Below, piece after piece: positions 11,305 to 13,014 of a DNA stretch of 64,000 nucleotides. The stretch is taken from NCBI GenBank assembly GCA_963766715.1, contig CAVYBH010000012.1:712916-776915 (forward strand), in the 5' to 3' direction. Made by a program: the position numbers and the translations under genes. The stretch comes from an uncultured delta proteobacterium. GTDB lineage: Bacteria > Myxococcota > Myxococcia > Myxococcales > Anaeromyxobacteraceae. The notes below the pieces were generated by a model. It did not search any database, was not told the origin of the DNA, and saw only the letters and a list, made by a program, of their open reading frames with translations. Position 1 is the first letter of the stretch. The number at the start of each line of letters is the position of its first letter.

Positions 11305-11380
11305 TGGCAGGCCAGGAGGGATTCGAACCCCCAACCCGCGGTTTTGGAGACCGCTGCTCTACCGTTCGAGCTACTGGCCT
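11305..11380 (-). tRNA. tRNA-Trp (CCA)
   Basis: 76-nt cloverleaf AGGCCAG...CTCCAAA loop...GTTCGAAT...CTGGCCTGCCA. Confidence 0.97.
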
Positions 11381-11399: not shown

Positions 11400-11558
11400 C
11401 TACTTCGTTTCCTTGTGCGCCGCGTGCTTGCGGCAACGCGGGCAGTACTTGGAACGAGACAGCTTGTCCTGGGTCTTCTTCTTGTTCTTGGTGGTGCTGT
11501 AATTCCGCTCCTTGCAGGTCGTGCACTCGAGCGTGATGATCGTTCTATTGCCGGCCAT
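11400..11558 (-). CDS. rpmG: 50S ribosomal protein L33 (Zn-binding form)
   Basis: Hand translation (below ORF-track cutoff): [52 protein letters not shown]. Confidence 0.97.
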
Positions 11559-11570
11559 GGTTCAGCGTCC

Positions 11571-11756
11571 TCACTGGATGACGGCCCCGGCCATGACCAC
11601 CGCGATCCCCGAGGGGAACGAGATGGACCCGGTGACGTCCGTGGTGCGGGATTGGAACTGCGAGGCCTCGGAGAGCAAGGCACGGCCACGGCCGGATCGA
11701 CCGATGGCCCCCACGATCACGTGGGGCTTCGTGCGCTCGAACTTCTCCTCGACCAT
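11571..11756 (-). pseudogene. tuf: Internally deleted EF-Tu remnant (61-codon open mini-ORF) at the tufB locus
   Basis: MVEEKFERTKPHVIVGAIG matches the EF-Tu N-terminus, QFQSRTTDVTGSI-FP-G-VVMAG matches domain 3, VIQ matches the C-terminus; sits between tRNA-Thr(GGT) and rpmG. Confidence 0.85.
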
Positions 11757-11761
11757 GATGC

Positions 11762-11837
<76 letters not shown>

Positions 11838-12230: not shown

Positions 12231-12259
12231 CTTGTACCGGACGTCCCTGGGGTTGTCAA
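12231..12259 (-). promoter_or_regulatory. sigma70 promoter of the tRNA operon
   Basis: TTGACA-17 nt-TACAAG followed by a GC-rich discriminator-like CACCCGC. Confidence 0.7.
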
Positions 12260-13014
12260 GCCGGGATCTTGCCTGTGCTTTCGCCGCGCTGACGCATCGC
12301 TTCATAGATGGCGATGGCCGCCGCGGCCGAGGCGTTGAGGCTGCCCACCCGGCCCGCCATGGGGATGCGCGCGGCGTGGTCGCAGCTCTTCCGGACGAGC
12401 GGGCGAACCCCCTGCCCCTCCCCCCGATGACGAGCGCGATCGGCCCCTTGAGGTCGACCGAGGCGAGGTCCACGTCCCCGTCCGGGACCGCCGCGACCGT
12501 CCAGAGCCCCGCCTCCTTCAGCTCCTCCAGGGTCCGGACGAGGTTCGTGACCCGGGCGATGGGCAGGTGCTCGACCGCACCGGCCGAGGCCTTCGCGGCC
12601 GAAGGGGTCACGGAGGCGGCGCGGTCCCGGGGGAAAGATCACCCCGTGGGCCCCGAGCGCGTGGGCCGAGCGGACCACCGCCCCCAGGTTGTGCGGGTCC
12701 TCGACGCCGTCGAGGAGCACCACGAGCGGCGGCTTCCCCGCCAGCCGGGCGGCCGCGAGGATGTCCTCCACCTCCCGGTACCGGTAGTCGGCGACCACCG
12801 CGACGATGCCCTGGTGCTGCGTGACGCCGGCGAGGCGGTCGAGCTTGGACCTCGGCGCCGTCCGGACCTTGGCGCCGTGACCCCGCGCGCCTTCCTCCAG
12901 CTCGGCGAACGCGCGGGGACAATCGCCGCCCTCGGCCAGCCAGAGCTCGGCGATTCCCTCGCCACCGGCGCGCAGGAGCTCGCGAACCGGGTTCATGCCG
13001 TAGACGACGCGCAC
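12256..13014 (-). CDS. rlmB: 23S rRNA G2251 2'-O-methyltransferase (two compensating indels near 12630 and 12422)
   Basis: YGMNPVRE...HQGIVA...LDGVEDPHNLGAVVRSA; middle part KASAGAVEHLPIARVTNL in another frame; end GEGQG...SLNASAA. Confidence 0.93.
   Translation of the reverse strand: MRVVYGMNPVRELLRAGGEGIAELWLAEGGDCPRAFAELEEGARGHGAKVRTAPRSKLDRLAGVTQHQGIVAVVADYRYREVEDILAAARLAGKPPLVVLLDGVEDPHNLGAVVRSAHALGAHGVIFPPGPRRLRDPFGREGLGRCGRAPAHRPGHEPRPDPGGAEGGGALDGRGGPGRGRGPRLGRPQGADRARHRGEGQGVRPLVRKSCDHAARIPMAGRVGSLNASAAAAIAIYEAMRQRGESTGKIPA

Follow-up and report, generated by a model that had tools for sequence, protein, structure and literature searches.

A tufB remnant between tRNA-Thr and rpmG in a genome of the Anaeromyxobacteraceae, probably retained as an RNA structure

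The window analyzed here is a stretch of 64,000 nucleotides from an uncultured delta proteobacterium of the Anaeromyxobacteraceae (GenBank assembly GCA_963766715.1, contig CAVYBH010000012.1, positions 712,916 to 776,915). On its minus strand a tRNA cluster is followed by an open reading frame (ORF) of 61 codons plus TGA (11756->11571) that is a remnant of tufB, by rpmG and tRNA-Trp, and then by secE, nusG, rplK, rplA, rplJ, rplL and rpoB, names recognised from the translations (Table 1). According to the available part of PMC8046335 this operon order is the ancestral one. A strict promoter scan returned no site between the tRNAs and nusG, and a terminator scan returned no minus-strand site in this interval and one plus-strand site inside nusG; from the lack of a promoter and of a minus-strand terminator we therefore infer one transcript. 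An Rfam scan gave 17 matches up to E 5, none of them on 11571-11756.

Table 1. Features of the tufB locus, in coordinates of the window
Feature	Position	Strand	Remarks
tRNA-Thr(GGT)	11762..11837	-	final tRNA of the Thr-Tyr-Gly-Thr cluster
tufB leader stub, 5 nt	11757..11761	-	
tufB remnant	11571..11756	-	codons 1-31, 27 domain 3 codons, last 3 codons and stop
RNA three-way junction, conserved	11664..11754	-	remnant nt 3-93; long outer stem and two inner hairpins
First deletion junction	11664/11663	-	3' end of the three-way junction
Inner hairpin 1	11709..11726	-	nt 31-48; codon 13-14 changes lie within the 4-nt loop
Inner hairpin 2	11685..11708	-	nt 49-72; former P-loop codons
Domain-3 piece	11583..11663	-	fold no better than shuffles; pair-breaking changes at the neutral rate
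Last codons and TGA stop	11568..11582	-	overlap with the rpmG Shine-Dalgarno
rpmG (L33)	11400..11558	-	first downstream gene; name recognised from translation
tRNA-Trp	11305-11380	-	after rpmG

The ORF matches a solved EF-Tu, that of E. coli, in two pieces (residues 1-31 and 328-355; E 6e-11) and arose by two in-frame deletions in tufB, with about 85% of the gene gone. Translation and match bear out an earlier note on this DNA, which had described a two-piece EF-Tu mosaic with a decayed P-loop, a domain 3 piece and a VIQ-stop end. As that note also stated, the ATG stands 5 nt after the CCA of tRNA-Thr; the distance to rpmG is 13 nt. Intact tufB leaders in other genera measure about 39-65 nt and carry a ribosome-binding site. 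The reported absence of a Shine-Dalgarno sequence holds if the tRNA is folded or cut off and fails otherwise, as a GAGG lies 11 nt upstream of the ATG within the 3' strand of the tRNA-Thr acceptor stem; it follows from the tRNA cloverleaf that this GAGG is buried while the tRNA is folded.

Some of the survival of start, stop and frame can be explained without a special cause. The second deletion joins two in-frame GGAC repeats (seen at locus L022), VIQ and the stop survive because they overlap the rpmG ribosome-binding site, whose GAGG is kept in 8/8 aligned short spacers, and 34 random substitutions leave the frame free of stops 58% of the time. Elsewhere in the window (12256-13014, minus strand) an RNA methyltransferase-like gene, which we take to be of the rlmB type, changes frame near 12630 at a G run, probably through another indel error of the assembly.

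Of 24 listed runs four, from different studies, were examined for spanning contigs, and each of them has one contig that covers the remnant from end to end without gaps, with 3, 4, 6 and 8 letters differing. RNA runs with matches lie outside these four and are represented by contigs only, with shares of 0.20-0.34. Protein searches of JGI and ENA assemblies yielded 12 proteins with the same junctions (11 distinct as 61-mers), so that junctions and frame recur in diverged relatives from metagenomes; among protein representatives the search returned a single member, P0003, besides fragments of tuf. Two of these, P0009 and P0011, are called from upstream starts, and their extensions read as tRNA-Thr and the same 5-nt stub; genomic context is confirmed for these two variants only. 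Relatives that have named records belong to the Anaeromyxobacteraceae.

Against the tufB of three relatives (G034, G018 and G004) the first 93 nt show 20-21 differences, compared with 26 against the genome's own tufA, and the 81-nt domain-3 piece shows 17 compared with 21. The codons thus follow the tufB of relatives and argue for descent from tufB, not from tufA, which answers the earlier suggestion to compare the remnant with the genome's intact tuf. Gene conversion from tufA as source of the conserved blocks was rejected, since the codons match the tufB relatives. The only other tuf of the genome is this tufA, in the str operon (G000:C12:459977-461166; L001, L002). It is one base short near codon 193 compared with the sister G002, most likely a sequencing error, because the gene is essential. 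Although this shows that the assembly has indel errors, spanning contigs in 4/4 independent runs, 11 variants with the same junctions in JGI and ENA assemblies, and codons that follow tufB leave next to no probability for a collapse of two tuf copies during assembly, which the earlier note had also discounted. A second contig of run X1 links the tRNA side with the 3' half of the remnant (11657-11754) and skips 96 nt; it may come from a relative with a diverged or deleted 5' half.

The genus is represented by 14 genomes, including the one of this stretch (G000). Among the 13 others, 11 have spacers of 27-57 nt without the ORF, G004 has a full tufB before rpmG, and G007, which is 70% complete, has no rpmG match. 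The earlier note had named frame-broken, differing remnants in sister taxa as the mark of neutral decay, and at the genus level the 11 short spacers present just this state. The pattern of a short leader plus ATG was found only in G000 among 92 family genomes, and a pattern scan of metagenomes returned two loci, both with 57-nt spacers. In a tree that left out G002, G005 and G006 as short or partial, G000 is sister to G008 (support 100/100), the spacer of which is 54 nt long. G004 falls inside the group with weak support, and the test did not reject a basal position for it (AU 0.43), a result compatible with one loss of tufB as well as with several; its tRNA cluster was looked for and not found. 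By these comparisons the remnant ORF is thus confined to one branch and dispensable over evolutionary time.

Spacers of 53-57 nt in G002, G009, G013, G010, G011 and L054 keep, in real DNA, a hairpin with the 5' arm of the remnant, and the hairpin persists in sister spacers whose start has changed (to ACG, CTG or GAG) or whose frame is lost. Among eight aligned spacers 4/9 of its pairs change on both sides, again in real DNA, with few related rows and a structure drawn from the same rows. At least five of the 11 short-spacer genomes (27-34 nt) lack the hairpin. The genus therefore offers a series of intact tufB, 203-nt spacer, 53-57 nt hairpin and 27-34 nt bare spacer. The sister species have trimmed the spacer further, several to the closing hairpin alone and some to nothing, and the element is therefore useful but dispensable. 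Spacers between the tRNAs of the same operon also vary across the genus (48-57 nt; 19-20 nt).

Several side observations belong to this comparison. A further variant of the short-spacer hairpin occurs among the joints in run X3. In five genomes from other families (L123-L127 in G054, G049, G043, G051 and G059) no tufB lies between tRNA-Thr and rpmG; their spacers measure about 19-50 nt and show no tuf-like letters by eye. At L024 (G023:C111) tufB seems to lack about 12 codons between two repeats of an Ala-His-Val codon run, owing either to a slip in the assembly or to a short repeat at which an in-frame deletion occurred. A second tRNA-tufB-rpmG contig of G006 (L052, G006:C27), with 87% identity, groups with outside genera in the tuf tree and is probably contamination. 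P0038 and P0269 are EF-Tu proteins of 103 aa, internally deleted and decayed, with other junctions and on contigs of up to 55.8 kb; they may represent a similar event that happened independently.

The 5' 98 nt of the spacer fold at -52 kcal/mol (z -4.10, 0/200 shuffles as good), against z +0.25 for the 3' 108 nt and z -1.57 for the whole 206 nt, the split into halves having been chosen after the fold was seen. A separate shuffle set gave z -3.7 for the 5' part, and z <= -3.5 was reached in 1/150 random windows. MFE and centroid agree, for the dominant fold only; seven unpaired nt precede the outer stem. A proxy ancestor, built from the tufB of the same three relatives, already has this architecture: its first 93 nt fold at -35 into the closing stem with the two inner hairpins. 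It is at the final base of this ancestral closing stem that the first deletion stops. The kept 5' piece is a self-folding 93-nt unit of the start of tufB, which became more stable after the deletion. When the ancestor was given the same changes at random under three nulls, -52 was reached in 11, 4 and 28 of 2000 runs, and the 3' half showed nothing. Intact tufB of the nearest genus folds better in this region than tufA (z -2.3 and -2.8 vs -0.7 and -1.1).

A pair test used a structure fixed from the ancestor alone; for the ten other variants the nucleotide changes are the minimal ones inferred from amino acids, with silent changes invisible. Of 49 distinct changes so inferred in the 5' half, four break a pair, nine keep one and 36 are unpaired, whereas 27% (weighted) to 48% breaks were expected (P 0.001). 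In the 3' half 13/32 inferred changes break a pair, as expected, and the two halves differ (Fisher P 0.0007). Two-sided changes, which in the variants are inferred from protein sequences, replace G-C by A-U at nt 4-92 (A2T+A31V), A-U by C-G at nt 11-85 (E4A+S29A) and, twice, U-A by C-G at nt 53-68 (I18T+H23R). Kept G-U pairs occur at nt 5-91, 57-65, 31-48, 35-44 and 25-75. In the decayed P-loop, H20 and V21 lie in a loop, D22G and H23R are wobble changes that keep pairs, and K25-T29 built a new helix. P0161 and P0162, which came to light once the model had been fixed, retain the architecture (-49 to -53 kcal/mol). Lineage-by-lineage energy tests were weak (19, 114, 48 and 46 of 800; later 45-109 and 17-23 of 600).

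These results make it very likely that the 5' RNA fold is under selection, a signal in the first 93 nt that the earlier note missed. Selection for structure in the 3' half was rejected on its z value, its expected pair breaks and the null runs. Judged by the inferred changes, substitutions in the 5' half do not appear blind to structure, as those of a neutral pseudogene would be, and the 3' half fits neutrality.

The tufB leader and 85% of the body have been lost in this lineage, and we consider it probable that what is left is a tufB relic kept by selection as a cis-acting RNA structure. On balance, the fold would serve to protect the downstream message or to sustain it. A single transcript would contain both the tRNA cluster and rpmG-trpT-secE-nusG-rplKAJL. 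The 3' end of a tRNA is released by an endonuclease, and excision of tRNA-Thr would leave the downstream message with the fold near its new 5' end, where it could block RNase J and slow RNase E. Seven unpaired nt could still admit RNase E. Before the tRNA is cut, the fold may hide an untranslated or poorly translated stretch from Rho. The genome encodes Rho, RNase E/G and RNase J; two rho-like genes were seen (G000:C7:43977-45230 and C13:125253-126332), the second below the family cut-off. The exact length of 61 codons is left unexplained by selection for the RNA fold.

This length bears on the main alternative, a rather unlikely one, namely that the frame itself is selected and the peptide irrelevant. 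Ribosomes would start at the ATG, co-transcriptionally or leaderless after release of the tRNA, and travel the length of the ORF, melting the fold and blocking Rho, to re-initiate at rpmG, where stop and Shine-Dalgarno overlap; the leader would amount to the speed-sensing switch of tufB itself, with the downstream operon as its present target. All 11 variants have exactly 61 codons, despite only 36-43/61 shared residues in deep lineages and although the tRNA spacers of the same operon do vary in length, and the chance of no stop among 81 inferred changes is 0.07-0.09. Near-type frameshifts after codon 31 would score 62-69 bits, compared with 48-50 for tuf fragments, and no frameshifted variant is among the 269 proteins returned. 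P0009 and P0011 keep Met at the remnant's start although called from upstream, and pairing between the 3' half and the rpmG Shine-Dalgarno is predicted. However, the variants were found as called proteins, so that broken frames are under-sampled, fully so in distant lineages, where frameshifts would score 23-30 bits; stops and frameshifts are absent from the 11 protein-ascertained variants, and the ORF is gone by further deletion in the 11 sister genomes. The intact frame, as a sign of translation, is thus a hint biased by protein-based detection, and the same bias affects the earlier note's proposal of a frame kept open to avoid polarity. Moreover, the -52 kcal/mol fold engages the third base of the ATG and the codon after it in pairs, a free Shine-Dalgarno is missing, and the sister spacers that drop start or frame retain the hairpin. 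Translation of the leader and selection on the RNA fold can hold together.

In a more specific form, which we judge unlikely, an autoregulatory switch of tufB outlived its gene: a leader-stripped dummy ORF of 61 codons would still be translated and tune Rho read-through or re-initiation. It seems similarly improbable that the speed of translation, set by EF-Tu from tufA, decides the 93-nt fold with rpmG-secE-nusG-rplKAJL as target. If true, the switch would be an attenuator made by gutting a core translation gene.

Less probable still is a neutral fossil on its way out, with a hairpin inherited from tufB and perfected without selection by template-switch mutagenesis at a quasi-palindrome. Erosion to 27-57 nt in 11/13 sister genomes and the five genomes of other families entirely without tufB here fit such decay, and the multi-base changes that cluster at codons 25-29 look like copies of the arm opposite. 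The pairs made by template switching are perfect, yet many kept pairs are G-U, and neither the rarity of pair breaks in the 5' half alone nor the two-sided changes in separate lineages are explained.

A functional micro-protein, e.g. an EF-Tu mimic or decoy, as the earlier note had considered, is very improbable. In its favor 24/61 residues are invariant in the 11 variants, including much of the RTTDVTG stretch, but this conserved, quiet 3' block was rejected as not significant (P 0.13-0.15). Compared with the proxy ancestor the remnant has 34 substitutions, with pN 0.237 and pS 0.088, unlike intact tufB pairs (pN 0-0.05, pS 0.14-0.27); the deficit of silent changes loses significance when base mutability is taken into account (P 0.17) and therefore does not point to positive selection. 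Variant lineages are 30-40% apart in protein sequence, the deep ones sharing 36-43 of 61 residues, and the mean BLOSUM score of 71 derived residues is -0.56 vs -0.46 or -0.31 at random, no more conservative than chance. AlphaFold gave no fold (pLDDT 58, pTM 0.18), and a Pfam scan of the 61 aa returned no family. The junction and dN/dS check proposed earlier thus gave shared junctions and a protein that, by these rates, seems to be under no purifying selection, and the micro-protein reading is largely refuted. Membership in EF-Tu (TIGR00485, PF00009/PF03144/PF03143) was also rejected: the remnant is not among the genome's 10 TIGR00485 matches, the P-loop GxxxxGK[ST] is lost, with Lys-Thr missing in 11/11 variants, the G domain stops at codon 31, and 61 aa compare with about 394 aa. 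Descent from a tuf gene is clear from the match and the codons given above; the remnant is neither EF-Tu nor an Rfam family, and its 5' half is no plain pseudogene. The protein sequence is free to drift while base pairing is maintained or restored by compensation.

A search of the literature, which covered few subscription papers and no supplements, turned up no account of a tufB remnant of this kind. The autoregulation of tufB in Salmonella has reportedly been described by Brandis et al. in 2016. As far as the accessible portions of the sources go, a structure in the 5' part of Salmonella tufB couples translation to Rho termination (PMC12360218, PMC6735719). The present locus is alike in having structure in 5' tufB RNA behind thrT (z -4.10, covarying pairs) in a genome with Rho. 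In those portions, the Salmonella structure controls tufB itself, whereas the present locus has lost both tufB and its leader, a single fold dominates, and the genes affected, if any, would be rpmG-secE-nusG; the likeness to the attenuator extends to the dominant fold computed here, not to an alternative conformation or a rut site. The tufB-secE coupling in the available text of PMC6735719 is likewise a case in which sequence of the tufB locus matters for secE-nusG expression, but it consists of a terminator-promoter overlap, and the scan here found neither.

Loss of one tuf copy is known from work on tuf duplication, loss and gene conversion, and the part of PMC4342817 at hand describes differential tufB loss with the same locus and the same outcome, one tuf left. 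The five genomes of other families in this order likewise lack tufB here, cleanly lost. While such loss is usually clean, a 186-nt mosaic with structure-preserving changes persists here across lineages 30-40% apart in protein sequence. Finally, according to the sections available of PMC3997798, messages gain stability against RNase E, RppH and RNase J from structures at their 5' ends. The remnant resembles such stem-loops as a stable structure near the expected 5' end in a genome that encodes RNase E/G and RNase J, and differs from those described there in coming from dead coding sequence, in an end presumably made by tRNA processing and in the 7 unpaired nt that come first.

The tufB remnant, if kept as an RNA element, would be a natural case in which the hidden RNA structure of a coding sequence is exposed once protein constraint is lifted: residues of the P-loop decay exactly at the positions of loops and, within helices, change in pairs. 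The case is also a warning that what looks like a conserved small ORF, its frame intact, may be an RNA element. The series within the genus is a direct test of what the junction from tRNA-Thr to rpmG needs, and the finding suggests a role for 5' tufB RNA structure outside the enterobacteria.
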